From Leptogorgia sarmentosa (lineage: Eukaryota): a stretch of 64,000 nucleotides of DNA. Each line of letters opens with the position of its first letter. Position 1 is the stretch's first letter. A program made the translations under genes and the position numbers. The DNA is taken from positions 14,508,001 to 14,572,000 of the forward strand of contig OZ210885.1 in NCBI GenBank assembly GCA_964658305.1, written 5' to 3'. The notes under the pieces are model-generated. The model was not told the DNA's origin, did not search any database, and saw only the letters and a program-made list of their open reading frames with translations. Positions 7,866 to 63,470 of the stretch are shown here, one piece after another.

Positions 7866-8951
7866 ATGAGCGCCTCGGATGATGAGTCGCGATTGCTGGC
7901 CGACGAAGGCCCAGAGAACGCTCATCCCGAAGACCTCCCGGTGGCTTTAGTTAAAACGGTACAGTCCAGCATTGAGGGACAATTCTCTAAGCTGGCGACA
8001 AGCCTGGAAGAAGGCTTTCTAAAGCTTGGGACAATACTAAACAATGGGATGAAGACTTCCCGCCAAAACCCGATTTCGTCGAGTGGCTCTGATTCCGGGT
8101 CCGATTCAGACACGGAAGACAAACAGCCATCGGTCAAACGCAAAAAACAGCAGCTGTCTGATGATGACGTGACTAACGAAGTCAATGCACTCCTCAGTAC
8201 TGGTGCTTCGAAAAAACAAACTGCTCAGCCTGCCGACAATGTGTCACAATCGACAGTTTTGGCAATGGTGGCTGATGAGTTGAACGAGGAGAACTGTGGC
8301 CCAGAGGTAGCGGAAAACCTCGCCAAGGTTGTGGATAAACTTCTTCGCACAAGGTTGGCGGATGAAAAACTAAAGGAGAAGCAAAGCTTGTACTCCCGGC
8401 CAAAAAATTGTGAGGCGATGGTTCCCACCCGAGTCAACTCCGAAATTTGGCAGCAGCTGCAACCCCATACTCGTTCACAAGATATACGCATGCAAAAAGT
8501 GCAGAATTCTCTACTGAAAGGGCTAATGCCATTAACTCAGTTGACCAATACTCTCCTTCAGCTGCCAGATGTGGTATCAGCTGAAAACCGAGAATCAATT
8601 GTGAAAAAGGCACTGGATGCCCTCACCCTGATTGCACAGGCAAATGGAGAGTTGAACCAGAGACGACGAGAAATAATTAAGCCTGACCTCAACCATCAGT
8701 ATCAGCAACTCTGCAATGATCAGGTGCCTATAACCAGTTGGCTGTTTGGCGATGAATTAGCAAAGACTTGTCAAGACATAACCAACACCAACCGCGTAAG
8801 CCAAAGAGTCTCTGGGCTTGGGTCACACAGGCCCCATCGTCAGCAGAAATATCGCAGACATTACCGCCACCCAAAAAACGAGCAGGGGAAGTCTCGGCCC
8901 CAGAGCAACTTACCACGGAAACAGGGGGGCAACAGAAAGCTGCAACAGTAA
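7866..8951 (+). CDS. DIRS gag-like ORF1
   Basis: Open frame of about 360 aa with YSRPKNCE..VPTRVNSEIW and LNQRRREIIKP...LFG motifs, first ORF inside the DIRS ITRs. Confidence 0.85.
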   Translation: MSASDDESRLLADEGPENAHPEDLPVALVKTVQSSIEGQFSKLATSLEEGFLKLGTILNNGMKTSRQNPISSSGSDSGSDSDTEDKQPSVKRKKQQLSDDDVTNEVNALLSTGASKKQTAQPADNVSQSTVLAMVADELNEENCGPEVAENLAKVVDKLLRTRLADEKLKEKQSLYSRPKNCEAMVPTRVNSEIWQQLQPHTRSQDIRMQKVQNSLLKGLMPLTQLTNTLLQLPDVVSAENRESIVKKALDALTLIAQANGELNQRRREIIKPDLNHQYQQLCNDQVPITSWLFGDELAKTCQDITNTNRVSQRVSGLGSHRPHRQQKYRRHYRHPKNEQGKSRPQSNLPRKQGGNRKLQQ

Positions 8952-11032: not shown

Positions 11033-11831
11033 CAGCAATATTGGATTTTCTGACTGAACTTTATGAGCAAGGACAACAATATAGCTCATTGAACACTGCC
11101 CGATCTGCGTTGTCTTCTGTAATTGTGCTCTCTGGGGATGTGCCAGCTGGGAAACACCCTTTAGTATGCCGTTTCCTTAAGGGTGTGTTTCAAGAACGCC
11201 CTGCTCTACCGCGATACGTGGATACGTGGGACGTCAGTTTGGTGTTGAATTACCTTAAAGCTCAATATCCCCTACAAGAACTTGGACTCAAGGAACTGAC
11301 ACTAAAACTGGCCATGTTAATGGCTCTTCTATCTGGCCAACGTTCACAAACATTACAGCAGTTGTGCACTACAGATATCATTATGACGGATACGGGTTGT
11401 ACGATTCACATCGCAGCTCCCCTTAAACACACACGGCCAGGAACTCATCAGGCACCTATCCGATTGCCAAAATATAATGACAGCAGTCTGTGTGTGGTCG
11501 ATACATTACGTTGTTATTTGGAACGAACATTGGAAAAAAGGGTTTCTGAAACTCAACTATTTATAAGTTTTTGCAAACCACATAAGAGGGTAGCTTCAGA
11601 TACTGTTAGTCGCTGGATAAAGCTGCAGGCATTGACACTACACGTTACAAACCACACAGCACCAGGTCGGCCTCCACCTCCGCGGCAGCAAGAGTTGGAG
11701 TTACGATTGATAATATACTATCATGCGCTGGTTGGTCTAATTGTGAAACATTCGCTCGATTTTACAACAAACCGTTATCGGAATATCCGGAACATGCGTT
11801 CGCCAGGTCTATATTAGCGGCCGCAACTTAG
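10720..11831 (+). pseudogene. DIRS tyrosine recombinase with one frameshift near 11620
   Basis: SGQRSQTL (first Arg) and LKHTRPG in the listed frame. After about 11620 another frame reads AAGIDTTRYKPHSTRSAS...AGW...FARFYNKP, giving the H-x-x-R motif and catalytic Tyr. Confidence 0.88.
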
Positions 11832-21200: not shown

Positions 21201-23063
21201 ATTCTTTCCAGATGCTTAAATGACTGAATTAACTTTGTATACTGTGGATTGTCGACCGTAAACAGATTTCCGCGTTCGACTTTAGTAACCTCCACTCGCA
21301 ACTTCTCCTTTCCGTCGATAGACGCAACGCCCATTGTGGACAGAGTCACTTCCCGTGTTGTGGAACCGAGCATCATCTCAATCTTTCTCACTTCCTTTGT
21401 CTGTGATCGTTTCGGTAGTCTATCCAACAGGCCTGCCGAGGCGTAGGAGCTGCCCGCTCCAGTGTCCAGCAGGGCGCGACATTCAACACCTTCAACATTC
21501 ACATTCACTATTGGGTATATACCACGGAGTTGCTCCCTTGCTCAGGAGCTAATAGTTTCTCTCTTCATGTGCAAATTGATGTGTGATGCCTCTGATTGCA
21601 TCGTTGACAACCAGAGTTGCTCTTACATTCAGAAGCTCGATGCTTCGCTCCTGTGCAGTTGAAACAACCGTTTTGTTGCCAGAATCTTCTTTCTCTCGTT
21701 CACTTCTGCCACACTTGTACAGTCTCGAGATTTGTGATTGGTGTCATCACAATAAACACACCCATGCTTCTTTACACCAGTGTTAAAGACCTTGTCCTTT
21801 CGTCTCTTCTCTTTGCCACTCTCCTCAGTGCACGGATTAATGTCTCGCCATGTTCTCAATGCTTTAACCAACTGTGCCAAGCCCCAATCTTGCCATCCCT
21901 CTTGTCCCCTCACAATATTGCTCTTTATGCCAGGTAGTTTATCCAGAACGCTTCTTGCCATTCCGTTAACGCGCTCTAACTTGCCTAGAGTCTCTAGTGA
22001 TTGTACGTTATACAATAGAGTTTTGTAGAATTTATCTACTTCAATCGAGTTGGAATCCTTGACAACTGGTAACTGCAAGATATTCTGGACGTATGCATTT
22101 ACAATTTCACTTACTTTGCCATATTCACCTTCCAATATTGCTTTTGCTTGGGCATAACCTTCGGTCGTAAGGCGTAATCCGTCAATATCCGACCTTATTT
22201 TAGGCTCTACGAGTTCTTTCAAGTATGCAAACTTTGTAACCGGAGAAAGTTCAGCGCTGTCGATTTCCGCTATGAACTTATTCCAAAATGGCAGCCAATT
22301 TTCATATTTCCCATCGAAATTAGTAATAGCAAGTTTGGGTAGCTTTGTTGATACAGCTTTAGCATGACTCTGATTCCCTGCTTCCAATACCTTTTGAAAC
22401 TTTAATTTTTGTTCAAATAACTCTTGTTCTTGCCGCAGTTTTCGTTCGTGTTTTTCTTGTTCAAAGCGCAGTTCCCTTTTGTAAGTTTCATCTTTCTCAG
22501 ACGCCCGTGATTCCTTCTTAATTTCGCCTTTCACTTGCTGTAATTCTTGGACCGTTTGGTCGGCAGCTTTCAATTTTTCCTCGATACTACTTGCCCAGTT
22601 GGTAACTTCATCCTCCGATTCTTCTCCCTCAATTCTTTCTTCCTCACTTGCATTCTTCAATGTGTGACAAGCTTGTATTTTGGCAACTATCGCATTCTCG
22701 TGCCGGCATATCGCATCGCTGCTGTTCGATACAATTATTTCTTGGCTTCGTTTGACGGCAAATTCCAGTACACGCAACTTCCGATCAAGTTCCTTAACTC
22801 TAGCTTCCATAATCTCAATAAATCACAAGTTTTATTGTTAAATAATCACCTGTTTCAAGAGGGTTTTGTTCCCGTCTCGTTCGTAGCGTTGCCAGGTTCT
22901 TGCTCTTGTACGAGCGAATATCACGTAAATCCTGTGGTCGGAGGTGCCACTGTGTTGTAAATCAGCCCCCAATTTTACTCACAACACAAATTCAGTGTAC
23001 GAATATGAATATTATTCTTTCACAGTAATTTTCACGGTAGTTTTAACATAATGTTAACGTTTT
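18216..23063 (-). mobile_element. BEL/Pao LTR retrotransposon, internally deleted, 5' LTR truncated
   Basis: 3' LTR 18216-18455 preceded on the minus strand by a GGGGGAGAA polypurine tract. About 110 bp of the same LTR recur at 22953-23063, followed by a PBS-like TGGCACC. Gag (KLPKLAITNFDG), protease LLDTGAGSSY, RNase H LHTFGDAS...TIPRLEL and a C-terminal WPLGVVEEL..GRDG domain are present. Confidence 0.9.
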
Positions 23064-26645: not shown

Positions 26646-28880
26646 TTGGAAAAATTGAAAAAACCAAACGAGACCGTTAAGTCCTACCTCCACAACCTTC
26701 ATCCCATCACACCAGTTAATGTAACCTACTTGCAACATGAATTAAAAAATCATCCTAACGCCCTATTTGTGTCTAATTTGGTCCAAGGATTCCGGGCCGG
26801 TTTTTCTATTGGTTTTGAGGGGCCCCGAGCGCCACGTTTTTCACGCAACCTGAAGTCTGCGGACGACCACCCTGATCTAGTCACAAAAAACTTGCTACAT
26901 GAAGTTAGGTTAGGCCGCACCGCCGGGCCGTTCCTTTCCCCAATTTCCAAATTTATCCAATCGGCGTAGTACCCAAAAAGTATTCGTCTGACTGGCGAAC
27001 AATTTTTCACCTATCGCATCCAAAAACATCCGGCAACAGCGTTAACGATTACATTTCCAGAGAAAACTACTCTCTTCAATACGTAAAAATCGATGATGCG
27101 ATTAATCTGATTATCCAGCTTGGCCGCGGCTCTGTTATGGCGAAAACGGACATTTGTTCTGCCTTCTGTAATGTTCCTGTTCATCCTAACGACTGGGAAT
27201 TATTAGGCATGCATTGGCAGGGCCTATATTTTTTCGATAAAGTATTACCATTTGGCCTTCGTAGCGCGCCTTTCATTTTTAATCAGCTTTCCGATGCCCT
27301 CGAATGGATCGCAAAAACCAATTACGGCATTAAACATGTTTTACATATTTTAGATGATTTTTTCCTGATTGAACCACCTCCTAGGTCAAACTGCATGACA
27401 TCCTTATGCAAATTGCTTACACTTATGACGAATCTTAACATTCCTATCACGCACAAAAAGACCTATCCGGCGTCTACCGAATTAGAATTCCTTGGGGTAC
27501 TCTTAGACTCGGAAAAGATGATCGCCTGCTTGCCCGCGGATAAACTAACGCGAGCAAAACAGTCATTATTAGTGTGGCTTTCCAAAAAACCGTGCACTCT
27601 AAAAGAGCTTCAGTCCTTAATCGGCACGCTACAATTTGCATGCCGCGTCGTTGTGCCCGGTCGCGCTTTTCTCCAACGCATGATAAATCTTACGCGCTGC
27701 GTTACAAAACCACACCACCACGTAAAGCTAAATTCATCCTTTCGCAAGGACGTCGCCATGTGGCTCATTTTCCTGGAGCAATGGAATGGCTCCAATATTT
27801 TCCTCGATATTTCGCCCACAAATTCACTCGAACTCAAGTTTTCCACCGACGCATCGGGCTCGTTAGGCTATGGCGTGTTTTTCAACAATCTCTGGTTTCA
27901 GGGCAAGTGGTCAAAACAGTTTCATGCGCACAAGGAGCAGCATGGAAAGAGCTTTTTCCCGTCTATCTTGCCCTGCTCAGTTTGGGGCCACCTATGGTCC
28001 GGCAAACGCATTATACTCTGGTGCGACAATGTCTCTGTCACTCAGATTCTAAATTCAAAATCTTCGAAAATCATCAAAATAATGGACCTAGTTAGAAAGA
28101 TTACCGTTCAAACACTCATTCACAATGCATGCCAAGCATGTCCCCGGCTTAGACAACCCAATCGCTGACGCATTATCACGGTTTCAGACACACCGATTCC
28201 ATCAACTAGCTCCCACTGCCTACCCACATCCTACCGTCATCCCCGAATCCTTGATTCAGGTCTAACTCAAAAAGTCAACACACTGCTCGGCCAAGCCATT
28301 TCCTCTTCCACGCGAACTACATATTCCTATGGGGTCCGCCAATACTTGGACTTTTGTTTTGCTCACAACCTTGCCTCACCAAGCAGCCCTCTTCCACCTC
28401 CAACAGAAGAAAATTTGGTGTATTTTGTTGCGTCGCTCCACGGTAAAGTCAAGTACCAAACAGTCAAGCTGTACCTCGCTGCAATTTCCAACTTCTATGT
28501 AGAGCACAACCAACCTTTACGCTCCACTACCATGCTCCAACTCCACGGCATCTTAAAGGGAATCAAGCGGACTTCCAATCCTCAAAAACAGCCTCGTCAC
28601 CCCATAACCATACACCTTCTGTCCCAGATTTCAACACTACTGCGTCCCGCGTTTTCCGAGGACCTCGATACTGTCATGCTCTGGGCAGCCTTCACATTGG
28701 CTTTCTTCGGATTCCTGCACGTCAGCGAGTTTACCTACTCCAGTGCAAAGACTTTCCTCGCTGTTCACGACATCACATTCGTCCCTAACATCGCCACTCC
28801 AACATCCATCCAAGTTCGCATCAAACAATCAAAGACCGATCCATTCCGCCACGGAACTACGCTCGTCATCGCTCCCGGTC
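26646..28880 (+). mobile_element. Truncated, frameshifted Ngaro-like YR retrotransposon (RT-RNaseH-YR)
   Basis: PITPVNV...GFRAGFSIG, MAKTDI, LPFGLRSAP, ILDDFF, TDASGSLGYG, WCDN, then YR with AFTLAFFGFLHVSE and IKQSKTDPFRHG. The YR breaks off near 28880 and no terminal repeats are seen. Confidence 0.85.
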
Positions 28881-29104
28881 ACTTCACCAGGGGGAAGCCC
28901 GGCTTGGACATGAGATTCAACGTCCACAACGGTGAGGGCCCTTACCCTCACCCTGATGTTGTTTTCTCCAGCTTCTCCGGGGGCCCTTACTCCCAGAAAC
29001 CGCACTTTCCGTCACCCACAAATCGCCAAAAAACGAATTGCGTGTTTTATTAATTCTCTCTATATATGGGATTCCAGATGTTTTTGTACACTTTCCAACA
29101 TGTA

Positions 29105-33716: not shown

Positions 33717-36700
33717 CCATTACTGTGGAAGGTTTGCTATGAACCCAGAATATCTTTTCTTTGCACAGTTTGTTGTGGAACAAAAAAAAGTAATGGCATT
33801 AACATAGCATTGAGAAAGTACACAGGCAGTCTGTAACTGCATCACAAGTAAAATCAGACGTAAACCGACTAAAAGGTTTAATTTGTCAAGATCAGGCATA
33901 TTTGTTCTTGAGACAAATTCCAGGAACACCACCATACTGGCAAAAATTTATGTATGAAGTAGTAGCCATGGTAAAACAGCTTGGTATTCCAACATGGTTT
34001 ATGACATTATCATGTGCTGATCTTAGATGGCCTAAGTTGTTTCAGATTATTGCAAGGACACAGGGTAAAAATATGACTGACGAGGAAATTGAAGCTTTAT
34101 CTTACACTGAACGATGTTCATGTAACAACCTTAATCCTGTCATTGCTGCAAAACACTTTCAGCATAGAGTAAAAACCTTTTTCACTGAGGTTTTGCTCAG
34201 TCCTGTAAACCCAATTGGTAAAATAATATATTATGAGCTTCGCATTGAATTTCAGATGAGAGGTTCACCAAATTTACATGCATTAATATGGACATCTGAT
34301 TGTCCTAAACTTGATTCAGACAACAAAGAAGCATATATACAATTTATTGATAGCCATGTCCAAGCTGAGCTACCAGATCAAAAATCAAAACCACACTTAC
34401 ATGATTTAGTCAAAATGTACCAAAAGCATAGTCATTCTAAAACTTTCCGCAAATACAAAAATGTCAGTTGCAGATTTAATTTTGGCCAGTTTTTTACAAA
34501 CAGAACAATAGTAGCAGAACCTTTGAGTAGGGATTTAACTGAAGAGCTCAGGTGTAACATACTTGATCATAGAACAAAAATTTGATGAAGTATTAAATCC
34601 GCCAAACTCAGATTATAATGAGACATTCTGTGAAACAGATATCCTAAATATGGTCAATATTACTGAGGGTGGGGGTTGCTGGGCTCTTTCCATATCACCA
34701 GATTCATATTTTGACTTGCACCTTAAGAGGCCTATTGACAGCTGCTTTATTAACAACTATTTTGTTGCTGGTATTAAAGGTTTTGAAGCCAATGTTGACT
34801 TACAACCTGTATTCAATCATTACAAGTGCATAACATACGTCTGTTCATATTTTACTGAAGATGAAACCGAATGTTCTCAAGCTATTGTAAATGCAGCAAA
34901 AGAAGCCAAGGCTACAAACCTCAGTACTAGAGATGGTCTGAAAAAAATTGGTGCTGCTTTTCTCTCCACAAGAGAAGTGAGTTCTCAAGAATGTGTGTAT
35001 AGATCAATGCCAGAACTTTGGCTTTTCCTAAAACTGTTTACATTGCCACATATTTCCCAGAAAAAAGGTTGCATGTTACTAAAACCCAAGATGAACTTGA
35101 TGACAGTACTGACATTTTTAAGTCAAACATAGAACGTTACACTATCAGACCAGCAAATATACCTGTTGTCAATAAGTTATGCTTAGCTAAATTTGCTGCA
35201 TATTACTATAAAGACTATAAAACAGATTCTAATAATATGACTGACTCACAGCCAGAGGTCTTGACAGATGATTTAATTGAATCACAAGGTGTAGAGACTG
35301 GCATGTCTGAATGTCGTCCAAAAAAAATAAGGTTAAACAACACTAATGAACACATGAAATGTCGCAAAATTAAAGCTGTTGTAAGACACTATAGACCAAA
35401 TAAAATGAAAGAACCAGAAGCTTATTTTCACCATTTACTTATGCTGTACTACCCTTGGCGAAATGAAGGTAATTTAATGGCACACGACAAAACGTATAGA
35501 TTAAAATTCCACAAACCTGACATTCAGGCTATAGTTGCACACAACAGAGCAATATTTGAACCTGATACAGATGCCATTGATCATGCCTTTGAAACATTTA
35601 CATCTAACCCAGGTAATATGAATTCATATGACCCAATAAATGATCAAGAAAATGAAGAGTTGCAAAATGAAATGCAAGATGATACTTTTCCAAATGAAGT
35701 TTTTAATGAACAAGTGCCATCACATCTAGACCAAGTGCAAAATTCACATACTTCTTCTGGGGCAATTACTTCTTACAACCAACCAACAGAAATGTCTGAT
35801 GATACATTACATAAAAATATTAGGTCATTAAACACTGAACAACGTCATGCATATGATATATTTCTCACTTAGTGTCGCAGTAAAATGAAAAGTTTAAATA
35901 GCTTAAAACCTGTTGAAGTATTCGGGATTTCTTGGCCCCCCAAAAGAATAGTATCCCAAACAAATCACAATAGAATATCGTTTCTCTTTTATTCTCACAT
36001 GCTCGTTTACAACTACACAACAACAACAACCCTCGTGTCCTACGTCATTGTACGATGACGTATGCCCAAATGTACTTCCGGATTTCCATTTCCAGACAGA
36101 AGTAGACCCAATTTATCTATTTATTACTGGAGGTGGTGGTGCTGGGAAAAGCCACTTGATTAAAACTATATATAACACAGCTATTAAAACATTTAGACAT
36201 CCACCTAATAACCCAGAATTACCAACGGTCCTTCTAATTGCACCAACAGGTGTAGCTGCAATAAATATTGATGGCACAACAGTTAATACAGCTCTTGCAA
36301 TTCTTAAAGAAACTGGTGATAATTTGCCACCTATGTCAGACCAAAAGAAAACTCAGTTAAGATTAACACTGTGTGACTTAAAGCTAATCATAATAGATGA
36401 AATTTCTATGGTTGGCAATACAACATTCATGTAACCAACGACTGAAAGGGAATTTGGTGAAATTGCAGGAATTTCTATTATAGTTGTTGGTGATTTATGC
36501 CAACTTCCACCTATACGCAAAAGATTTGTATTTGATTCCTACAAAAATAACCTATTGAACCTTTGCCATCCTTGGAAAGTATTCAAAATGATAGAATTGA
36601 CCAAAAGCATGAGACAAATTTTGTTGACCTTCTTAATAGAGTTAGGATTGCCGCTCAAACAGATGATGATATTAGAATAATACAGTCAAGATCAATTCAC

Positions 36701-38347: not shown

Positions 38348-38781
38348 CGGCGATTTCAGCGGCAAATGACAACGAATTAGTGTTTGTTTCACCTGTAGTT
38401 AATGACCAAAATCACTACTAAAATAGAATATTTGCTAGCGAATAGGAGTTTTATGCATTCCGGTCTTGTGTCTAATGGATAAAAATAGTGTTGGGCAAAG
38501 GCGTTAAGAAAGTGTTAAGAATTACGATAAGAGTATTAAATAGAGGTGTAAAGATGGAAAAGAATGGTGTTAGAATACTTAGATGTTCCGCAAAGCCGGA
38601 CAAAGAGGAGGAGCCTTGAGAATTGCACTGATATTATAAGGCAACGTGCTTGCCAAATGAAGACAGTCGCTGAAGTCGAACAACGAGGATCTTTGAAAGT
38701 CAATTTTTCGCAATTATTTTCGTAAGGTAGGATATTTTCTTTATTTCACTATTTTCCTCTTATTTCGCGTTGCTCCGATCA

Positions 38782-39387
38782 ATGGCTTTGGCAACCACCA
38801 CTACTGTGCCCAAAGTGTTAATTCTGGGCCATTCGTTTGTGCGCCGCCTCAAGAGCGACTTGCGCGCAGGTTTCGATGCGCGCGCTGCGTCGGATTTCGG
38901 CTTAGGCGGTACAATCGAACTACGCATGTATGGGGTTGGAGGGCGTACTGTCCAGAAAGTCACCGAGTTCGATCTACCCACGGTAACTGCATTCGCACCC
39001 GACGTCGTCCTGTTAGAATTAGGCACAAACGACTTGGCGAGTTTAGCCCCAGAAGTCGTAGGGTCCAATATAGACGATCTTGTGCAGCTTTTGCTCTCAA
39101 AGTACTCGGTGCGCCTGGTTATTTGGTGCCAAGTTACACCACGTGCGACAGTGAAACGCCACGCATACCATAGCGCAGATTTCAACAAGAATGCGGTGCT
39201 ACTTAACCAATATATGCGCGTAGTGCTGGAACCTTTGCCTCGCGCGATTTGTTGGAAGCACAAAGGTTTTTCTGTACCAGCTGTATCCCCCTTTCTCCCG
39301 GACGGGGTGCATTTCAATCGCCGGGGCCAATATAGTCTGTATCGCAGCTATCGAGGAGCTATATTGCACGCGCTACACATGCTATAA
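38782..39387 (+). CDS. SGNH/GDSL-family hydrolase carried by the Ngaro-type element
   Basis: Block I ILGHSFV, block II GVGG, block III ELGTND, block V DGVHF. Frame is open. Confidence 0.88.
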   Translation: MALATTTTVPKVLILGHSFVRRLKSDLRAGFDARAASDFGLGGTIELRMYGVGGRTVQKVTEFDLPTVTAFAPDVVLLELGTNDLASLAPEVVGSNIDDLVQLLLSKYSVRLVIWCQVTPRATVKRHAYHSADFNKNAVLLNQYMRVVLEPLPRAICWKHKGFSVPAVSPFLPDGVHFNRRGQYSLYRSYRGAILHALHML

Positions 39388-39802
39388 ATTCTCGATGTAA
39401 TATCGTTTTAGAACTCTACCTTACTGTTTATTGTATTGCTGTTGTCCCAGCATTATGCTGGGTTTCTATAGTCCTCGTTTGAGGTTTATCCCAATTGATG
39501 GGATTTTTGTTATCCTCTTCGGAGGTTTTTTATTTTGCTGTCCTCATGTGAGGCTGTTGTCCCAACCTTCGTTGGGTTGTAGTTTAGTCTGTTTGGCCAC
39601 TCAGGGCAGGATACGCGGCGACATCAACCTGTCTGCCATTGCCTGTCCCTGTGAAAAATTTAACTGTTAAATTTTAAGTAATATTATAACGACGATAACG
39701 CTATCTGGTTCGAAAATCCTTCGTATATACGAGGGAACTACGGTTCTCTCACATGTACAACTATCTTCTATCTGCCCCTCGCCTCAGTTTTTTCATTGTA
39801 GC

Positions 39803-40930
39803 ATGCCACCAAAAAGATCTTCGACGCGTAAGCGTGGGCGAGCCACTTCTTCAGGTCCATCTGTTACGGACGAAAGCCCATCTATCCGTCGCAGCCGACG
39901 TTCCTCCACGCGCAATGCAACCATAGCTTCCCAAGGGACTACGACCGCTCAGACACCACGTGCTGTCGACATACCAGTGGTTCCACAACAACAGCCCGCT
40001 GTAATTCTACCACCTGACTTGATGGAATCCATCGCTTCCACCGTTGCAGCTGAGGTTAACAAACAGCTGGCCGCCATACACCATCCAGAAGTTCCCCAGC
40101 GTTCTACATTGCTACCCGAAATCAGCACGACGCGAGTGGTAAACGATGCAATAAGTGAGGCTCATTCTCGTATTACAGGTGAACCCCATTTATTGCCTAC
40201 TTGTAACGTAACTCCGCCCGTCGTTCCCAACCAAGTTTTTCTTTCTTCCAATCTGCCGATTGATTCTCGCGTCTCGGCCAAAATCAAAGGAAAAATTTGG
40301 AACGAGGAGTATCTCGATTTCGGTGTTTTACTGAGCAATCCTCTTACTGACAAATATCAGCTTTCCTTCCAAAACACCGGCGCCGGGCTTCCGGCTTCCC
40401 TTTGTCTTGAGCCAGTTTCTAAGCCTAAAAGAATTCTCAACATCGAGACATGGCAACAGGCATTTTATATCTTTGTTGGAGTTTACACCCAAAAATACCC
40501 GCATGAGGCCCCCGCACTCATGAAATACGGGCAAACTATTCGTGATTTGGCTGCCCGCGGTCAGAATTGGATTTTCTATGACGAAAACTTCCGCTATTTG
40601 CGCCAAACTGAAACAAGTCGTTTGCCGTGGGGGGCAATTCACGGGGAATTGTGGCTTCGTGCCCAATCGGCCCCCAAGGCAGCGCCACCCAGTCCAAACC
40701 AGGGTAATTCAAGAACAGGGCTGCCTTCAATTCCCTCAGGCTTTTGTTTTAAATTCCATCGCGGACAGTTTTGCTCGGGTAATTGCGGTTTTCACCATAC
40801 TTGTTTCAAATGCAAGGGTGCTCACCGTCACACTCAGTGTAATTTTCGTCCCCCTACCCATAAAAATCTCAAGTCTGACCGCCCAGCCAAACCCACTGCC
40901 AACGCCAGTCAAACTCCCGCCTCTCGTTAA
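39803..40930 (+). CDS. Ngaro gag-like ORF with C-terminal Cys/His knuckles
   Basis: KIWNEEYLDF, W..AF.IF..VY, WIFYDENFR and CFKFHRGQFC..C.FHHTCFKC..AH...C. Confidence 0.85.
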   Translation: MPPKRSSTRKRGRATSSGPSVTDESPSIRRSRRSSTRNATIASQGTTTAQTPRAVDIPVVPQQQPAVILPPDLMESIASTVAAEVNKQLAAIHHPEVPQRSTLLPEISTTRVVNDAISEAHSRITGEPHLLPTCNVTPPVVPNQVFLSSNLPIDSRVSAKIKGKIWNEEYLDFGVLLSNPLTDKYQLSFQNTGAGLPASLCLEPVSKPKRILNIETWQQAFYIFVGVYTQKYPHEAPALMKYGQTIRDLAARGQNWIFYDENFRYLRQTETSRLPWGAIHGELWLRAQSAPKAAPPSPNQGNSRTGLPSIPSGFCFKFHRGQFCSGNCGFHHTCFKCKGAHRHTQCNFRPPTHKNLKSDRPAKPTANASQTPASR

Positions 40931-42460
40931 ATTTCTTTCGGGTTATGACCCCGATGCTGTTCGAATTTTAATTTCCGGATTTTCGCATGGTTTTCCTATT
41001 CATTTTGATAAAACTCGATCGTCTTTAACGGCGAATAATTTGCTTTCGGCGTTGCAAAACCCGCAAGCTGTCGACATGAAACTGGAACAGGAATTGGCTG
41101 CTAAACGTTTAGCGGGTCCTTTTAAGTCACCCCCGTTTCAAACCTTTTGCGTCTCGCCGCTTGGTCTGGTGCCCAAAAAGACACCAGGTGAGTTTCGGCT
41201 AATTCATCATCTATCGCATCCCCAAGGATTTTCGATAAATGATGGAATAGACGCGGCAAACACGCAAGTACACTATGCTACAGTCGCTGACGCCATCCGT
41301 CTCATTAAGCGCGCAGGACCGGGCTGTTTTTTAGCTAAAACCGACATTCAAAGTGCATTTCGCATCATCCCTATCCACCCCAATGACTACCCGCTTCTGG
41401 GTATGCATTGGCGTGGGGTTTATTATTACGACAAGTGTATGCCAATGGGCTGTTCCAGTTCATGCAAAACTTTCGAGCTTTTTAGTACATCAATTGAATG
41501 GATTGCTCGCCACAAGCTCGAAATCGAGGAGCTCCTCCATTTGTTGGACGATTTTCTTTTTGTATCTTCTACACATGATCAGTGTCAACGTAATTTAAAT
41601 CGATTTATTTCCTTGTGCAGCCAACTTGGCGTCCCCATAGCACCAAATAAAACATTCGGTCCATCTACCACTCTTACATTTGCCGGAATCGAGTTAGACT
41701 CGATTCGCTCTGAGGCGCGTCTACCTCGTGATAAAATCACCAAGTGTGTCGAGATTATAAACGGTTTTTTACCTCGCAAGAAGGTTCAACTTAAAGAACT
41801 TCAATCTTTAATTGGTCTTTTAAATTTTGCTACTACAGTCGTGACGCCAGGAATTGCTTTCCTGCGGCGCCTCTACGATCTTACGCAGGGCGTGAACCGG
41901 CCTTCTCATTTCATTAGATTGCGTTCCGAAGTGAAGGCCGATTTGCGTGTCTGGCTCAGTTTTTTGTCTTCTTTCAACGGCATTTCTTTCTTTCGTAATG
42001 AAGAGTGGTGTAATTCAACAAAGTTGAATTTATATACGGATGCGTCGGGCTCTATTGGCTTTGGCGCCGTTTTCGGGAATTCATGGTGTTATGGCCGCTG
42101 GCCGGCTAGTTGGCTGCATCGCAATTTTTTCCGATTGTACTTAGTTTATGTTTATGGGGTGATAAAATGCGCAATCATTCAATTTTGTTTTTTACTGACA
42201 ATGAGGCTCTCGTGCATGTCATCAATAAACAATCATGCCGCGATAAGACCTTAATGGTATTTGTTCGTAAGCTGGTCCTTGTGTGCCTTGACAATAATAT
42301 CCTTTTCAAAGCTAAGCACATTCCGGGTGTCAAGAACAAGTTAGCTGATTGTTTATCTCGCTTTCAGGTTCAAACTTTCAAGCAACTGGCACCAGCGAAC
42401 ACGAATCCTTTTCCTACGGACATCCCCCCGCATCTGCAGCCTCAAAGCTGGCCGATATAA
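40890..42460 (+). pseudogene. Ngaro RT-RNase H with one frameshift near 42122
   Basis: PLPTPV, FRLIHHLS, AKTDIQSAF, MPMGCSSSC, LLDDF, YTDASG, then FTDNEAL and NKLADCLSR in the next frame. Confidence 0.9.
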
Positions 42461-43368
42461 TTACACATCTCACAACATCCAGCTTACAACCATCCTCAAT
42501 TCCAACTTATACTCGGGCGTGGAAATTGTTTACGCAATTCCACAGTACATTGTTTCAGACAGCTCGTTTCAGCTTGCCAATCACGCCGGCTACATTGGCG
42601 CTTTTCATAGCCTATTTATTCGAACGCGGCTACGCTGCGTCTACGGTTAATACCTATACTTCCGCCTTAGGTTACTCTCACAAACTATCCGGTCTATCTG
42701 ACCCAACGTGAGTTTTCTATATTATTCAGATGCTCAAAGGCTACGGCAAAACTGGCACGCGCTTAGACAGTCGCCTGCCGATAACATTACCAATCCTCAG
42801 GAACTTAATCGAGGTAGCACCTCGCACTACCGGATCGCATTATCAGATCCACCAGTTCCAAGCCATGTGTGCATTGGCATTTTTTGCCTTTTTGAGGATT
42901 GGCGAAATTACAACCCATACGAGGGGTGGCTGTGAGCCGTTACAAATGCATCAACTCGCTTATATTCGTGACTCGAGTAACCAGGTGGATGGTATACAAT
43001 TAACCTTCACAAATTTTAAACATAGTTACAATGAACGACCTTTTATTTTGACGATAAAACGTCAGCCGTCGTGTTGTCCTATCGAGCTACTTCTCGATTA
43101 TCTTGCCCTCCGGGGTACTCGGCAAGGTGCGCTGTTTTTGACGCAACAAGGCACTGCCGTTTCACGAGAGGCGTTTGCTGGTCGGCTGTCTGAGGCAATT
43201 AACCTGTGCGGCCTTGATCCATCACGTTATAAAGGCCATAGTTTCCGTATCGGTGCCGCTTCGTATGCTGCAGTGCAAGGGATGTCCGACTCTCAAATTC
43301 GTATTCTTGGTCGTTGGAAATCGAATGCTTTCCATAAATATATTCGAGTTCCCTCCTTGTCAGCATGA
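42449..43368 (+). pseudogene. Ngaro tyrosine recombinase with one in-frame TGA at 42709-42711
   Basis: ORFs 42349-42711 and 42730-43368 share a frame. Motifs AFFAFLRIGE, FKHS, GHSFRIGAAS and LGRWKSNAFHKYIR. Confidence 0.92.
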
Positions 43369-44747: not shown

Positions 44748-46850
44748 TCATAACTCATAAGCATTATAAAAAATGTATATAAAAGGGTTAATGAAACTAA
44801 ACGTAAATTCCATTCTTCTTTCTTTCACACAAAACTTTTTTATAACATTGTCATAAAACTCTGGTTTCCCCTGCAAACAAGTCAAAAGTTCTTTCTCAAT
44901 AGTGATGGTAGCCAATGCTGACACAACCGATCTTGTCCTTGGGTGCTTCGAAGGTATGTCTTGATGCGCTTGAGCGCTGAAATTGGCATTGTTAGGATAA
45001 GTTGACATAAACGATAAACTTCCGGAAAGCAATTGTGTAGGTCAAGTTCGACAATTTTTTTAATCATGGCAAAAACAGGTTTCGATTTAAGTTCAGCAGA
45101 TGCATAAACAACGGTTAGTTCACCTTTTAAGGCAAGGATATTGAAAAATGAGCATTAGGTGGCTTCCAAGGAATTTAATTCTTCTTCTGGGAAATCTGTA
45201 CTATACAACTCGTGTTTTGAGTGGTCAAGCAAGGAAACAAATTTCATGCTGTTCAGACTTTCGAACCTGACATCAATCTGCATGACCGCGGTGTCAACGA
45301 CAGAGAAAAACATTCGACAGAATGACGCTTTACCTTGTTGTTCAGTTTGCCCTCGTCTCTTCGGTATATCCGCAACTTCTAAAGTAGAATTCCAATACGA
45401 TTCAAAATTGTCCTGTAATTCTTGAATTCTGCTTTTCGTTTCGATATCGTAGAGAATAGTTGTGAGTCCGAACAAAGGTGAAAATATGTTTAGGCAGAAC
45501 ACAAACTGGAAATCTGTGACAATATTGCGGTAGCCACAAGCTTCGTTTAGCACAGTACCTTCGAATTCATCGTCGTGCTCCAGGATGTATTCGAAAACTT
45601 CCACCAGCTTCTCCCGCGTCTCCAGTATTGCATGGATTAGTCTTGCGTGATAATGCCATCGGACAGCAGTACCAGTGGGAATTCGTCTACCAACAATCGT
45701 GTCTAACAAATGCGTTCTCTTGGATGAGATGTGGAAAAAGGATGAAAGGCCACTGACAGTCTTGAAAAATACTCTGCACTCTTTGGTTGACGACACTGCT
45801 TGGACCAACACTAAATTCAAGGCATGTCCACAACAGTGGATAAACAAGGCATGTGGATAGTCCTCTCTAACACGAGCTTGCAAACCGGTTAGTTGCCCCG
45901 ACATAACGCTCGCTCCATCATATGTTTGCGCAATCAATTTTCCACCACATCCGTACTCCTCCAAAGTACCGTCAACCTCTTGTTTCAATCTCGCTGCTGT
46001 TCTGTCCTCGCTTACGTCGGTGAATCCGAGAAAACGCTCCACAGGTTTGCCATCAGAGTTTACATAACGAATAATAGTGGTTAACTGAGACAAAGTTTTA
46101 ATGTCGGAGGTTTCAACCATGGAAATCGCGACGAATGGGCTGCTAAACACTTCGTCCATAATTGCTTTGGTTATGACATTTATAACAGAAATGATCAAAT
46201 CGTTCTGAATATGATTCGACATTCCAGAAAACACAGTAGCCGTCTGAAGATGTTGCTCCAGCGAGGAATCGTATATACTGACCAGCTTCACCATTGCCAC
46301 GGTTGGCTGATTCTTGGACCTCCACCCGTCCTCTAAAGGAAAGTTCCTGTTTGCCAAGGAAACAAACAACATTGATAAAACGGCGAAGTATCTCTCTATT
46401 CTTATGCACTGCCAGATTATGCGCTGATATATGCTGACATGTTTGCTCGTCTAGTTGCAAATCGATGCGGGCTCGACCAAAAGTAGCATTCATCAAACAA
46501 CTTGACAAATGACTTTTGGTTTTCTCGTGTCTACTGATAGCATTAGACAAATTCCCCAAATCGCTGTATCCTTTCTTATTCCATACAGGATTGTCTGTGG
46601 GATTGAACAAAAGGCATGGCCAGCAAAATAGTTCATTGAGTTTAGTAAAACCAGCAAGCCACTTGTACTTTTCATAATTTGATGTCTGAAAACTTCGAAC
46701 AAAAACTTTCCTGCCACGTTTTGATGTTGTGTGTAATTCTGGGATCTCGGGAGTAGGGCGTCCTCTTTCAACAATTTCTTTTTTCTCTGAGAATGGTCGG
46801 GATCCAAAAGGACGAGAAAGCAACGATTCCACGAGACAGGCGTTCATTTC
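44748..46850 (-). pseudogene. hAT transposase, frameshifted
   Basis: YKWL...LFCWPCLLF...RHEKTKSH, QELSFRG, AQTYDGASVMSG, FIHCCGHALNL, VRW, and ALKRIKTYLRSTQGQDRL. Confidence 0.88.
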
Positions 46851-46963
46851 ATATATTTTGGGTATACGACGGTAATCACACTTTGCACTACTAGTTTTTT
46901 TTACATGTGAAGAAGTGGAAATTTTGTCCGTTATATATCTTTGCCGCTCAGGAGTGGCTTGTA

Positions 46964-47549
46964 CAGTGTGTCTCAAAAAAAAGGTAATCCAACTTTGGCA
47001 TGCCATTGTGCGTTAATTACGGGGTGTACGAACGTGAGTTTTGCATGGTCATAAAGATCAAGGTCTTAGCAGTTGAATGACATATTTGTTGTACGATATG
47101 GAAGAAAATTAGGCAAATGCGAGCGTGTTGAAAAATCTCGGTGAAAAACGCATTCTTTCACCTCTGAGAATTGCAGCTAAACTTATTCAAAATTAACTCC
47201 CTCTGGGACTCGAAGATGACGACCTTCCCTTCAACAATCGACCTGATTATGCATAATTATTAATAATCCTGATAAAATCTTTGTTACCATGACACATTCG
47301 TGATGAATTGCATTTTTCTTTTGTTATGCACTGCTTTAATTAGGCACAGAGGTGAAAGAATGCGTTTTTCACCGAGATTTTTCAACACGCTCGCATTTGC
47401 CTGATTTTCTTCCATATGGTACAAGAAATATGTCATTCAACTGCTAAGACCTTGATCTTTATGACCATGCAAAAATCACGTTCGTACACCCAGTAATTAA
47501 CGCACAATGGCATGCCAAAGTTCGATTACCTTTTTTTTGAGACACCCTG
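46964..47549. mobile_element. Tc1/mariner-type foldback MITE with TA TSD
   Basis: TA|CAGTGTGTCTCAAAAAAAAGGTAATC...GATTACCTTTTTTTTGAGACACCCTG|TA with TIRs of about 200 bp. Confidence 0.9.
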
Positions 47550-57589: not shown

Positions 57590-59807
57590 TAGGTAGGTAA
57601 GGTGTCGCTATTTATTATATTTATGTAATATTACAACTCTGCACGATTGTCTTCCTTGGTTAATTTTCGCCATTTTGTGTTTTATTAGGTTATATTTTGT
57701 AGTTTTAGTTGTGTCCCTGCGTCTTACGTCTTCAGATATAATATTATACTGTCTGCATTGGACATGTTTATCCATGTCAAGCATTGAAACTAAAGTTCTT
57801 ATTCTTGGTCACTCATTTGTGAGACGTTTTAAACATGATTTGAATTCATATTTCGATCCAAGGGCACGAAAAGACTTTAACCTGAGCAGCACAGCTTTGG
57901 TTTGCCTTCATGGTGTCGGGGGCAGAACTGTGGATAAGTTGTGGTGCTCTGGTTTGACTGCTGTCAAAGACACGTGCCCAGAGATACTTATTTTAGAAAT
58001 AGGAACTAACGATCTTTCGTATGGGAAGCCTGAAACTGTTGGATCCTCCTTTGACGATTTCGTTCTATTTATTTTGAACGAAATTGCAAGCTTCTGGGTA
58101 ATCGGCATTTGCCATGTGATTCCTCAAGGCATAAATTCGTTTCTTGATGCTAAGGAATGTGCGTGTTGTGTTGGCACAATATTCGAACGTTTTCTGCTGG
58201 GAACACAAACAGTTCAATAGTGTTTTTATTTATATTTATCGGATGGCGTCCATCTCAATAATTTGGGCCAATATTTTTTATACCAAAGCTATTGTGGTGC
58301 GATATTGAAAGGTTTAACCATGTTGTAGTTAAATGTCTTCAATATCTTCTTACTGGATTACCCCAGTTGTCCAAGGTGAACTATAGCCGTAGCGTCAACC
58401 TTGTGTTTGACAGGGCTAGTCCTTGAGACAAACTTGTGCAATATACCTTTAATATAATCATTGCTTACTCGTTAATTTACATTCAGTGTACCAGTGAGGT
58501 TTGTTACTTTACCTTTTGGCATTTGTTTGTTTGTATTTGTTTGCCAGTGTGGTTTGTAACCATTTGGCTTGTTTCATATTCGTTAGAAACAGTGCAACCA
58601 GTGAGGTTTATTGACCTTTTGGTCCAATTATATAAACATGTAATAATTTTATCTCAAAATAAACACCAGGGGAATTACATTCCCTTCTTCGCATATTCTT
58701 GTTTGCTGTGCCAGCAATGATCTGTCTAGTTTTGATTATCCCTAACAGTCACAATGCCCCCAAAGAAAAGTTTGCGGTCTAAAAGTAAGAATGATGGGGC
58801 CAACTGCCCAGCCAAACGACCACGGCAAGCCTTTACAGTTTCAAAACGGAAGCCACAGGCAGCTCCCTGCTATTCCGCAGCGCAGTCTGAAAGTGCCCCA
58901 TGTTCTGCAGCTCTATCAGAACCACCAGTGGGTCCAGCAGCGGAACTGCGAACATTCCCACTGGACTTCCTTGACCAACTAGTAACCCGAGTAGCAGACA
59001 AGGTCACACAACGTATTACCAGTGCAAATGAGGAAGCTACTGGCCCCACTTTATCCACCTCCACTTCCTCCGAGGGCGCGAGCCGACAATGGTATGGATG
59101 CAGTCGGCCAACATTCCATCAAGTCCACCAATGCCGTTGGTTCTCTGGTCGAAGAAGCAGTGGTATCTTCCCAACTGTCAATTGCAGGTATACCTTACAC
59201 TGATACGCTTGCCTTCCCTGGCCATCAATTGCAGTCCACCAGTATGGATATCGATGCTCATGTGCCTGATAAACTGAAGGCAAAAATTTGGAAGAATGAG
59301 TTTGTAGATTTTAGTTCGCTTTTGTCCAATCAAGTTTCAATTAGCAGTTAGTAATTTAGATGGGAGCAACTATTTGCCTGGAGCCAATTAGCCGCAACCA
59401 AAAGATTGTCCATATCGTGGAAGTTTACACTCGCCGATTCCCTGCAGAGGCCCCCAATTTAATGAAATATGGCGAAATTGTTCAAGATTTAGCATCCAGG
59501 GGTTTTCACTGGCAACTCTCTGATGAAAATTTGCAGTTCCTCCGGCAGAGCTCGGCCTCAACTTTGCCTTAGGGGAAGTATGCACTGGGAGCTATGGTTA
59601 CGTGCTCAGCCATCATCTTCTGCATTTAATAGGCGTTTTCAGGCCGTTGCTAATCTAAATCCATTGGGATTTGGCATGTGTTGGTTGTGCCTTTAAACAT
59701 ACTTGTTTTCAGTGTCAACACCAGCATCGCGTAAGCCAGTGTACTTTTCGTCCCCAATTTCAAATTTCAAAGCAGCTCGCTATTCTTTTTAGTATCCATT
59801 GTCAAAC
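57590..59807 (+). mobile_element. Decayed relative of the SGNH-carrying Ngaro element (SGNH and gag, cut at the start of RT)
   Basis: KVLILGHSFVRRFK, GVGGRTV, LEIGTNDL and DGVHL, then MPPKK..., KAKIWKNEFVDF, EAPNLMKYGEIVQDLASRG and C.FKHTCFQC. Collinear with 38782-40930. Confidence 0.88.
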
Positions 59808-59816: not shown

Positions 59817-61226
59817 ATGGAAAATAACGACTTCGAAATCGATTTTGATCGGGAGCTCAATGTAAGGCAAACTCGCCGTGTATATCTCATCACTTATTCC
59901 CAAGCAGATCTTGGTAAAATACCAAATTGCCAGGCGTTTGTTGATTGTATACTTGAGGCATTTTCACAAAGAAACGAGAACCAGGCGAGTCATCCAGAAC
60001 ACTGGTCGTGCTGCATGGAGGATCATCGAGATGGGGGTAAGCATTATCACTTGGCTATCAAACTGAGTGGACCAAAGCGGTGGAATGCGGCGAAGAACTA
60101 TGTAAGACAAAAACACGGAATTACCCTGCATTTCTCCGACCAATCCTATGGGTACCATGTTGCCTACAAGTATGTTTGCAAGAGCAAGCCACTCACCGAC
60201 GTTCTCCACAGTCCTGCTCACCCCAATTTACAGGATATTGGCTCTCCAAAAACCAAACATGCCTTTACACAATTTTCCAATAACGCGAAGAAAAGGAAAA
60301 TCGCATCATCAACAACCAATGCGGAAGTAAATGAAAACGTTGCAGAGAGTTCTTCGAAAGCCAGCAAGAAGTTATCGAACATGGACGTTTCAGAATTTAT
60401 CGTTGCGAATGGTATTAGAAGCGATAATGAGTTAATGGCCGTCGCAAAAAGTCGACATTGTGAAGGTGAAAAGGATTTGTACAAATTCATCATAAACAAG
60501 TCTTCAAAATCGCTGTCAGAACTCATTGACATGACATGGAAAATGAATGACGCCTCAAAGAATGTTCAAAGGACAAGGGCGTCAAGAATGTCAATCCTCA
60601 GAGCCCATCTCGAAAAACAATGTTCACCTGCTTGCGAGGGACAGTGGTTGATGTGTGCAAAGCAAGTACTCCAGCAAAATGGAATTAATTTGTATTGTTT
60701 TGCTTCAGCCCTGCGCCAGCTTCTCGAGAAGGGGAGACAGAAGCGATTGAATGTCCTGCTCGTTGGCCCGACAAATTGCGGAAAATCATTTCTTCTCAAT
60801 CCACTGGAGTTAATATACAAAACGTTCATTAATCCGGCTACCGGAAAGTATGCTTGGGTCGGCTTAGATGAATGTGAAGTAGCATACTTGAATGATTTTC
60901 GATGGTCACCAGAATTAATCAGATGGAGTGACTTTCTGTTGCTCTTGGAAGGGCAGACAGTCCATCTTCCAAGGCCAAAGAATATGTTTGCCACCGATTT
61001 GTGTATTCCACGAGAAAACACCATCCCAATTTTCGCAACCAGTAAGGGTCCGATTGAGTTTTTCGGGAAATACAACAGCCGTGACGAGCGTGAGAATGAT
61101 ATGATGTCATCCAGATGGAATATATTCACATTCTGCGTCCAGATTCCGCCAAATGATTGCAAGGATATGAATCCATGTGCTCGTTGCTTCAGTAGTCTAG
61201 TCATGTCTGGAAGTGATGTTGAGTGA
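59817..61226 (+). CDS. Rolling-circle Rep: HUH endonuclease fused to a superfamily 3 helicase (CRESS/parvovirus NS1-like)
   Basis: Uninterrupted frame of about 470 aa. RCR motif I YLITYS, motif II KHYHLAI, motif III YKYVCK. Walker A GPTNCGKS, Walker B-like AYLNDF, motif C-like IFATS, Arg-finger-like SRW. Confidence 0.9.
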   Translation: MENNDFEIDFDRELNVRQTRRVYLITYSQADLGKIPNCQAFVDCILEAFSQRNENQASHPEHWSCCMEDHRDGGKHYHLAIKLSGPKRWNAAKNYVRQKHGITLHFSDQSYGYHVAYKYVCKSKPLTDVLHSPAHPNLQDIGSPKTKHAFTQFSNNAKKRKIASSTTNAEVNENVAESSSKASKKLSNMDVSEFIVANGIRSDNELMAVAKSRHCEGEKDLYKFIINKSSKSLSELIDMTWKMNDASKNVQRTRASRMSILRAHLEKQCSPACEGQWLMCAKQVLQQNGINLYCFASALRQLLEKGRQKRLNVLLVGPTNCGKSFLLNPLELIYKTFINPATGKYAWVGLDECEVAYLNDFRWSPELIRWSDFLLLLEGQTVHLPRPKNMFATDLCIPRENTIPIFATSKGPIEFFGKYNSRDERENDMMSSRWNIFTFCVQIPPNDCKDMNPCARCFSSLVMSGSDVE

Positions 61227-61288: not shown

Positions 61289-61513
61289 TGACACGTTACC
61301 ACACACGTTACCATTAAAATACTATACTAATTTAAAGGATACAACACGTTACCACACGTTACCATCATTTTTTAAAGAAGTATTATACTTCTTTTTAAAT
61401 AATTGTGGTAACGTGTGGTAACGTGTCACAAAAGATTAATTTTATGCTCTTACCTAAAGATAGCGTTTGGTAACGTGTTGGTAACATGTTGGTAACGTGG
61501 TGGTAACGTGTCA
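61289..61513. repeat. Palindromic iteron-like array with central hairpin (candidate replication origin)
   Basis: CACGTTACCA at 61292, 61304, 61345 and 61355. Inverted copies at 61406, 61416, 61468, 61479 (one mismatch), 61490 and 61501. Hairpin AAAGAAG-TATTATA-CTTCTTT at 61374-61394. Confidence 0.9.
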
Positions 61514-61610: not shown

Positions 61611-62330
61611 TTAATACTTTGTTCTGTTACCATTTCCTGCAACAATAAGCTGCATTCGTTTGTTCATTGAAAGAATTGTTTTATTAATTGTTTCGACTGG
61701 AACGTTCTTCATGGTGTATTTTATCCGCTCTGAAAATGCAGCGAAAGACTCTTTCGTGATTTTGTTTCTTAAAGCGTCGTCTTGAAGCTGTTTGCGCACA
61801 AGATGAAATATATTTTCAATCGGATTGATATCTGGAGACCGTGGAGGAATGGCGAACATTCTACACCCTAAATTTTCCATTGCTTTACGAGCAACTCTGG
61901 AACACTGTCGTGGATCTCCGTCCTGAAGAAACAGTTTTCCACGAGGATTAGCACTGTTATCAAAGACTGAACTGAAATGCTCTGCAACGAATTCGGCGAA
62001 CATTTTTCCGGTAAGTTTGGAATGATATTGTTCGCAACTTATTACACCCTTGCCGAAAGCAATTGCTACAAAAAAGTTTGCTGTTTTCCCACCGCTCCCC
62101 TCTTTTTTCCCTTTAGACGTATACACTAAACCCTCTCCAGCCTTTCGCCAATTTCGTGCTCCACTTGATCTGGCTTCATTGTGGGGATTCGTTTTGTGTA
62201 CAAATCCAACACCGTCAAAGTAAAAGCTAATCCCTTCCGTCCAGAATTCCTCTTTAAGCTGTTTCAAAACTTTCTTTGCAAAATTTGCTCGTTTGTTTTT
62301 ATCGGCTTCGGTAAGAAGACCCTTCTTTAT
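61611..62330 (-). CDS. Tc1-family DD34E transposase catalytic domain, 5' truncated
   Basis: SFYFDGVGF, FLQDGDP, then 34 residues to the E of SPDINPIE; C terminus GNRTKY*. The N-terminal HTH domain is missing. Confidence 0.9.
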   Translation of the reverse strand: MKKGLLTEADKNKRANFAKKVLKQLKEEFWTEGISFYFDGVGFVHKTNPHNEARSSGARNWRKAGEGLVYTSKGKKEGSGGKTANFFVAIAFGKGVISCEQYHSKLTGKMFAEFVAEHFSSVFDNSANPRGKLFLQDGDPRQCSRVARKAMENLGCRMFAIPPRSPDINPIENIFHLVRKQLQDDALRNKITKESFAAFSERIKYTMKNVPVETINKTILSMNKRMQLIVAGNGNRTKY

Positions 62331-63470
62331 AACGTACATACTGATTTCAAGTTAAACCATTAACTTTACAACTGTTATGGACTTGGCTTGTTTCCTATCC
62401 GATTATTTTAGTTATCCATGTGGAAATTTCCGGGGAAAATCTGACTGTGCACTCTGCTTAGACTAAGTATAACTGGCGGCGTATATGAACTCTCCCTTAC
62501 TTCGTTCAATGTAGTTTGTATTTTCTTTAAATTTATAAGAATATGATTCGATTATGAGTTAGTGTCCTTATATATACAAATATTAAGAATATAATTTTCT
62601 ATTCACATTAATTATTATATAACTACAATAAAATCAAAGTCAAAGACACTCGCGCAAACATTTGAGGCTAAACCATTTTGAAGCCATCCATCAGAAAACT
62701 CGGTCAAAGCATCAGGATGCCCCGCTACCCACCTCCCTCCCCCCCCCCCAACTGCCAATGTCGATCAGTTCGAGATGTCTCCGATTGTTGTGGTTGCTTG
62801 TTTTTATCTATTTCAAAAGATTGCTACGAAAAGAAAATAGCCACAGCACACTTGATACCTTAGGGGAAAACCCGCCTTTCTATCGACTGTAAATTCATTG
62901 TTTCTTTGCTAATTGACAATAGTTGAATGTTATTTTATGTTCACAAGAGTGACTGCTTATGCTAAATAAACTACAACAATAAATATATTTGATAAAGTTT
63001 GATGAATATATCGAAAATATGTAGAATGATTTTCGTGATTGCAATTATACCATGATCGGGGACGCTGGTTTTATCTATTTCAAAAGACTGCTTGGAAAGG
63101 AAAAGAGCTGCATGCATGAAATATTGTTGTTTTTCTTTGCAAATACCAAATAGACATGATAAAATGTTTTAAACATATGATTTAAGTTGTTTGTTCAATG
63201 TCATAGTGAGACGATAGTTTCTAAGTACTAATTAATGTCGCGTCAAATTTGCAAATATTTCATTGAAATTTAGAGCGCATTGGATTGTGTCCCCAAAAAA
63301 AAAATTTTTCATTTGTTATATATTAGTTTCGAATGACCGAGATGCAGTATCGAGTTACATGTGTTCGTGAAACACGAGGCCAGTGTGAAGAACACATAGA
63401 ATTGTGTTCACATCATTCACAGTGAACAGATGTGTGCTTTTCCGCTCTGACAGAATTAAAGAGCATTTAC

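Follow-up and report, generated by a model that had tools for sequence, protein, structure and literature searches.

The window, by which we mean the whole 64,000-nucleotide stretch of Leptogorgia sarmentosa DNA that was analysed, is transposon-rich animal sequence containing a Rep gene, a compact array of short repeats downstream of it (site A), and a truncated gene for a Tc1-like transposase on the opposite strand. Coordinates are collected in Table 1. The original prediction described the Rep gene and the array and overlooked the transposase, whose presence introduces a rival use for the site A repeats. The window copy of the element is cut short on both sides and is probably dead.

Table 1. 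Features of the element copy in the window
Feature	Position	Strand	Remarks
Left edge of element copy	59762..59791		Other same-species copies have different DNA upstream
Rep, 469-aa open frame	59817..61226	+	HUH nuclease, helical collar and SF3 helicase
Site A, left outer block	61292..61313	+	Two repeats 12 bp apart
Site A, left inner pair	61345..61364	+	Two repeats 10 bp apart, 41 bp past outer block
Site A, AT-rich centre	61365..61405		Foldable hairpin with 3-nt loop at 61383-61385; likely region of unwinding and nicking
Nonamer-like sequence of the original prediction	61378..61386	+	Mostly stem; unconserved in the family
Site A, right inner pair	61406..61425	-	Exact mirror of left inner pair
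Site A, right outer block	61468..61510	-	Four repeats with 11-bp period, 52 bp past inner pair
Tc1-like DD34E transposase	61611..62327	-	Catalytic two thirds only; DDE_3 match
High-depth repeat cutting the transposase gene	62328..63300		Arranged differently, partly inverted, in other copies
Possible decayed single site B arm	62739..62763	+	Oriented as expected; weak (nearly matched in score by a plain G run elsewhere)

The catalytic motifs of the Rep protein are intact. Its nuclease part carries motif I (YLITY at residue 23), HYH at 76-78 and Y119-x-x-K122, and its SF3 helicase has Walker A at 317-324, Walker B with D360, motif C with T408, and R433; there are also four conserved Cys/CxxC positions and a match to the Pfam family PPV_E1_C. 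H76, Y119, K122, G317, T408 and R433 are invariant in all 53 aligned Rep sequences, and H78, K323 and D360 are kept in 52 of them. Alignment and structure model (pLDDT 89) both place HUH motifs I-III, with the catalytic tyrosine, in one protein with an SF3 helicase. The modelled nuclease domain, which was also compared by Foldseek, lies nearest to the Reps of geminiviruses and other CRESS viruses (Z 10.8, rmsd 2.6, 107 residues), and the collar and helicase lie nearest to AAV Rep, B19 NS1 and papillomavirus E1 (Z 16-18). For the whole protein the best structural matches are AAV Rep68 and NS1, and sequence identity to the group of AAV Rep68, papillomavirus E1 and SV40 large T is 10-18%. Against the related locus L001, dN/dS is 0.11 over 467 codons; the corresponding values for L012/L019 and L005/L007 cover just 60 and 74 codons and are uninformative.

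A word search returned 397 Rep homologs and a profile search 830 clusters at 50% identity (E up to 1e-30). The closest named relative is from the octocoral Paramuricea clavata (81%), and the Atlas neighbours are unnamed clusters of Cnidaria and Perkinsozoa, followed by parvovirus NS1 (Parvo_NS1 clusters). No Rep relatives were found in scans of IMG/VR, and the plasmid and phage collections gave no match. The only prokaryotic match, L051, comes from a cyanobacterial bin, where a contig of 502 bp and high coverage holds part of a Rep gene; it is probably animal contamination. Related Rep domains also occur inside proteins of 850-1900 aa in the dinoflagellate Polarella glacialis (cluster P0606), with at least 7 records on a single 144,849-bp contig.

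The transposase in the window lacks its first ~124 residues, the DNA-binding part, and a search for the missing 5′ portion throughout the window, which included a 91%-identical query, did not find it. Its closest named relative is again from Paramuricea clavata (91%), and the nearest solved relative of a full-length homolog is Sleeping Beauty. The three residues of the DD34E triad (D, D and E) are kept in 119, 118 and 118 of 120 homologs and are also present in the window fragment. Most homologs have the HTH domain PF01498 (HTH_Tnp_Tc3_2), which is absent from the truncated window copy, and the GRP linker is well preserved (G66 in 120/120, R67 in 116/120). In four pairs of transposases the silent sites have reached saturation (pN 0.28-0.29, pS 0.82-0.87).

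Rep and transposase belong to one two-gene element. Both genes are present in 20 of the 22 related loci longer than 2.8 kb, unlike the single-gene layout of Tc1/mariner elements. Across all 51 related loci a transposase was found in 20, invariably on the strand opposite Rep; the two genes converge, with their 3′ ends facing site A, and their promoters flank a second structure, site B. Units measure ~3.6-5.5 kb. A search for a third gene or a capsid gene in seven complete or near-complete units found none; in each of the seven, the only other ATG frames of at least 100 aa overlap Rep on the opposite strand. Four of the 51 loci have terminal overlaps of 55 or 123 bases, defining units of 4510, 3592, 4061 and 4088 bp, and these contigs may be circles, tandems or collapsed direct repeats. 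A 21,975-bp contig of Paramuricea clavata holds four Rep genes (99% alike) alternating with three identical transposase calls. In three pairs of clusters, Rep contig sizes recur among the transposase records (8/11, 10/11 and 2/4), an indirect sign of dispersed two-gene copies. The Rep and transposase trees are correlated (Mantel r 0.65 for 33 pairs, of which 11 are direct and 22 inferred from matching contig sizes) and share 5 of 30 splits, versus 0.22 when shuffled, which indicates long co-inheritance with exchange or poor resolution. Upstream of site B in L031, at the place expected for the transposase, lies a 647-aa frame of unassigned kind (L031:1-1941).

Site A comprises ten 10-bp repeats, nine of them exact, in two inverted arms that flank an AT-rich hairpin. 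The forward repeats start at 61292, 61304, 61345 and 61355 and the inverted ones at 61406, 61416, 61468, 61479 (with one mismatch), 61490 and 61501, which bears out the predicted four forward and six inverted copies, the last four 11 bp apart. The segments 61344-61364 and 61406-61426 are exact reverse complements, as had been claimed. When the whole window was scanned at up to one mismatch, 13 matches to the repeat were found, versus 3.18 +/- 1.67 expected (0/100 shuffles reach 13); ten of the 13 fall inside 219 bp, and there is only one array. The segment 61270-61530 folds at -62.5 kcal/mol (z = -9.78), and none of 200 shuffles did equally well or better.

The array is a regular feature of the family. 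Among the 24 loci whose sequence runs on for 330 bp or more past the Rep match, 20 (four near-duplicates included) carry a two-armed array in the same place, as the proposed linkage to Rep predicts; downstream of Rep in L006, L039 and L043 the array was sought and not found, and L041 has a different layout. The downstream placement that had been called unusual is in fact the fixed position in the family, between the 3′ ends of two convergent genes. Wherever it was seen, the array is internal or at a broken contig end. The repeat sequence is family-specific, built around a loose AC..GT.AC frame. The geometry is consistent: inner pairs are spaced at 9-10 bp and outer repeats at 10-12 bp, the gaps between blocks are 30-31, 41-43 or 51-53 bp, corresponding to ~3, 4 or 5 helical turns, and the centres of 18 arrays measure 44-62 bp (sd 3.7) with 77-94% AT. 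Sixteen of these 18 contain TATA, and some consist purely of (TA)n. Between sister copies the array grows or shrinks by entire units of 10, 11 or 22 bp. Eight contigs from four runs show the centre complete and free of indels, and related families have a similar one; we therefore regard it as inherited and not as a fresh scar. One high-depth contig shares only the inner arm of site A. At L049:941-2334, two tandem site A arrays lie between Rep and transposase.

The original prediction also placed a circovirus-like nonamer in the hairpin. The sequence, AAGTATTAT, is present with its 8/9 match and within a stable hairpin; a nonamer exposed in the loop, as in CRESS origins, is not supported, since the predicted loop leaves six of its nine bases paired in the stem. 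The match carries little weight because the window contains 27 matches to the circovirus nonamer at up to one mismatch. In 18 related centres (where the row for L044 represents an inter-block gap, the true L044 centre likewise lacking the nonamer), NANTATTAC is found in none, TATTAC in one, and the window-type nonamer only in the window's own, being absent from all 17 others. A sister copy differs from the window at 61385, inside the nonamer-like sequence. Across copies, the site and the geometry of the array are kept and the loop nonamer is not. No conserved nick motif was found in a search of the same 18 centres.

The second structure, site B, is also a mirror arrangement, in which an outer box starting CAGACAATC, a C run and an octamer are followed by a free spacer of 24-113 bp and then by the mirror image. 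Its motif is 25 bp long and two-part, with a sharp edge at the spacer and a box starting CAG. Site B occurs in 11 of the 12 loci that have 800 bp or more in front of Rep, and none was found in L045; loci that have it are L003, L004, L005, L010/L014, L015, L016, L021/L022, L023, L030 and L031, as well as L033, L036, L041, L042, L048 and L049. It is more strongly conserved than site A. Neither candidate edge of site B has a TA, and the site B pair was not found in the IMG/VR scan. The 25-bp two-part layout and CAG-led box presumably resemble Tc1 ends, and site B is a better candidate than site A for the transposase ends; it may also be a bidirectional promoter. L041, a distant relative within the family (Rep 39%), has another arrangement of repeats between its genes. 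Its unit is bounded by two whole copies of site B in direct orientation (L041:1-140 and 5865-6150), which suggests long terminal direct repeats and solo copies.

On balance, we interpret site A as a cis-acting site conserved in a mobile element that has two genes, for an HUH-SF3 Rep and a Tc1-like transposase, and no capsid, and probably as a putative replication origin bound by Rep. Viral initiators with HUH and SF3 folds bind short tandem repeats beside an AT-rich region that is melted. In this reading, the 10-bp repeats would be occupied by the nuclease domains of Rep, in two sets placed head to head along the same face of the helix; the SF3 helicase would open the AT-rich centre of ~50 bp, and a TA-rich site within it would be nicked by Tyr119. 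A circular form could then be amplified to give circles and concatemers, and the transposase, acting at site B, would integrate units into host DNA, singly or as tandems. Assignment of site A to Rep is favoured by the linkage of the array to Rep, its helically phased geometry, the intact Rep motifs and the inherited centre, and also by site B, which provides the transposase with another candidate site. It is weakened by TA-rich centres resembling Tc1 targets, by high-depth contigs whose inner arm continues as (TA)n, by site B edges that have no TA, by the lack of a conserved nick motif and by mixed covariation.

The covariation results compare distances between repeats with distances between protein domains. 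For the Rep HUH domain the correlation with repeat distance is weak (r 0.25, p 0.048, n 17), and for the transposase HTH there is none (r 0.03, p 0.41, n 13); with 15 loci, repeat distance does track the catalytic domain of the transposase (r 0.27, p 0.034) and does not track the Rep collar and helicase (r 0.18, p 0.14). Grouping five loci with ACG-type repeats as one clade, chosen for the test after a tree had been seen, is allowed on the Rep tree (p-AU 0.625) and rejected on the transposase tree (p-AU 0.0005). L037 and L014, outside that clade, have G at the same repeat position. Parsimony separates the two trees by a single step (9 versus 10). Judged from these sequence comparisons, covariation of the repeat with the two proteins appears mixed and leans to Rep.

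The main alternative, which we consider possible and distinctly less probable, is that site A consists of two Tc1-type transposon ends joined tail to head; Rep would be carried as cargo and would start replication at another place, such as site B. Each arm would then serve as a terminal inverted repeat containing an inner and an outer block for transposase binding, and the centre would be what is left of TA target sites in a circle or tandem junction. The TA-rich centres, some of them pure (TA)n, are in keeping with this, as are the long, near-perfect inverted-repeat arms of L010/L014, L015, L026 and L033 and the correlation of repeat distance with the transposase catalytic domain. No terminal bases beside the centre are common to the families, however, and a repeat spacing of 9-12 bp is too short for the two-part Tc1 transposase footprint, which is ~25 bp and which site B does fit; the HTH domain, moreover, shows no correlation with the repeats. 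Contigs at 10-25 times local depth match 61339-61373 or 61339-61383 and then run into (TA)n, as expected of an end, but the same DNA follows the TA run in contigs of two species and may not be host flank. Similarly, L036 is a decayed unit in the order transposase-site B-Rep with (TA)n at both contig ends, yet it has no array beside its TA runs. All same-family copies that were compared span the centre.

It is improbable that site A is both origin and end in the manner of a parvovirus, each arm being a terminal repeat of a linear form bound and resolved by Rep, the joined form a dimer or circle junction, and the capsid gene replaced by the transposase. The structural matches of whole Rep to AAV Rep68 and NS1 and the Parvo_NS1 clusters among its Atlas neighbours point in this direction, whereas the nuclease domain is CRESS-like with a YxxK motif. 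The genes of ambisense densoviruses point away from the terminal repeats, whereas those of the element point toward the array, and a single arm does not form a hairpin. One element appears with its array in two arrangements (L021:5003-5521 versus L022:4949-5433), and in L021 the array is followed by the Rep flank in reverse, so that it is flanked by Rep on both sides. This resembles a flip isomer and would represent either an inversion isomer or an assembly chimera. Finally, a CRESS-type stem-loop origin nicked in the circovirus-like nonamer has the 8/9 match, the stable hairpin of the window copy and the CRESS-like nuclease domain to recommend it, and an independent MITE that landed beside the Rep gene would be a further account, but we consider both very improbable, as the nonamer is mostly paired, commonplace in the window and missing from the other centres, and the array, far from being dispersed, recurs beside Rep with differing repeat sequences.

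Returning to the interpretation of site A as a Rep-bound origin, a broader proposal, to which we assign a little less than an even chance, is that these elements represent a new class of eukaryotic DNA transposon which leaves the chromosome, amplifies as a circle from the Rep origin at site A and re-inserts via the Tc1 transposase at site B. There would be hundreds of families in marine genomes, and Rep, combining an active CRESS-type nuclease with a papillomavirus/parvovirus-type helicase, would lie near the expected intermediate of those virus groups.

Tc1/mariner elements, the textbook example of cut-and-paste transposons, have a single gene and lack a way to replicate. The element resembles them in its HTH_Tnp_Tc3_2 and DDE_3 domains, its DD34E triad and its proximity to Sleeping Beauty, and differs in its co-inherited Rep gene, two internal inverted structures and units of 3.6-5.5 kb; no TA-flanked end was found in the contigs compared. 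With CRESS DNA viruses (circo- and geminiviruses) it shares HUH motifs I-III, the catalytic tyrosine, the SF3 helicase and short repeats by a hairpin; because it has neither a capsid gene nor a loop nonamer, it is not a CRESS virus, and its helicase and collar are of parvovirus/papillomavirus type. In its working it is akin to a small replicon that has an integrating enzyme and no capsid, and within Tc1 it would be an atypical lineage at most. An origin-binding domain, a helical collar and an SF3 ring are also the plan of AAV Rep68, papillomavirus E1 and SV40 large T, whose origins have inverted binding sites and an AT-rich melt region. Loss of all three nuclease motifs is described for E1 and large T (PMC6668415), whereas Rep of the element keeps them. 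A nuclease retained alongside an E1/large T-like helicase architecture offers a testable model for the passage from nicking to melting origins.

A DDE enzyme is joined to a viral replication module in Polintons. The same is reported of Teratorn in the available portion of its description (PMC10175614); these elements are 15-180 kb long with capsid and polymerase genes, whereas the Rep-Tc1 element has two genes. Replitrons and Helitrons are, like it, eukaryotic transposons with an HUH nuclease. To our knowledge, neither carries a DDE transposase. Replitrons come from green plants and have no inverted ends, as described in the text at hand (PMC10741241), and HvSm, which we compare by its partial description only, is DD34E but single-gene and 1.7-2.8 kb in length (PMC7325037). 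The geminivirus-like transposon of Tuber melanosporum is a dispersed eukaryotic repeat with a Rep-like gene and transposase genes; it is fungal, with a geminivirus-type Rep, broken frames and 37-bp terminal repeats, and the accessible part of the account names no transposase type and gives no array or circular form (PMC3198968). The same partial source includes DENSOV_HM of Hydra, a cnidarian repeat whose second protein falls basal to the helicases of papillomaviruses and whose figure legend names PPV_E1_C; it is portrayed as an integrated virus-like element, in text that makes no mention of a transposase, and it is known here by name and tree position (PMC3198968). DENSOV_HM may be an earlier sighting of the Rep-Tc1 family. 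The literature searched, with thin coverage of subscription journals and without Repbase, held no account of a Rep plus Tc1 element, and the main text of bioRxiv 10.1101/2024.03.25.586562 has none of the transposon terms sought. The Rep-Tc1 element is apparently widespread and undescribed.

A large Tc1 clade in stable association with a rolling-circle initiator and a helicase would give eukaryotic DNA transposons a further strategy, replicate-and-paste with two genes, and if site A is indeed a Rep origin, the element would be a transposon whose copying resembles that of a small DNA virus. The family is large (830 clusters) and mostly unnamed, and its varying repeat sequence at fixed geometry makes a natural series in which to map specificity.

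In the surroundings of the window copy, the repeat at 62328-63300 has a depth close to that of the contigs that match site A in its inner arm alone, and could be a non-autonomous relative. At 57597-59760 the Rep gene is abutted by decayed GDSL-hydrolase and gag-like frames; these are like the element at 38731-43368, which we take to be of DIRS/Ngaro type. Other transposon remains lie at 7839-11817, 13224-15119, 18451-22822, 26909-29053, 33803-36434 and 45155-47012, and are presumably DIRS-like, hAT-like, BEL/Pao-like and Helitron-like frames.
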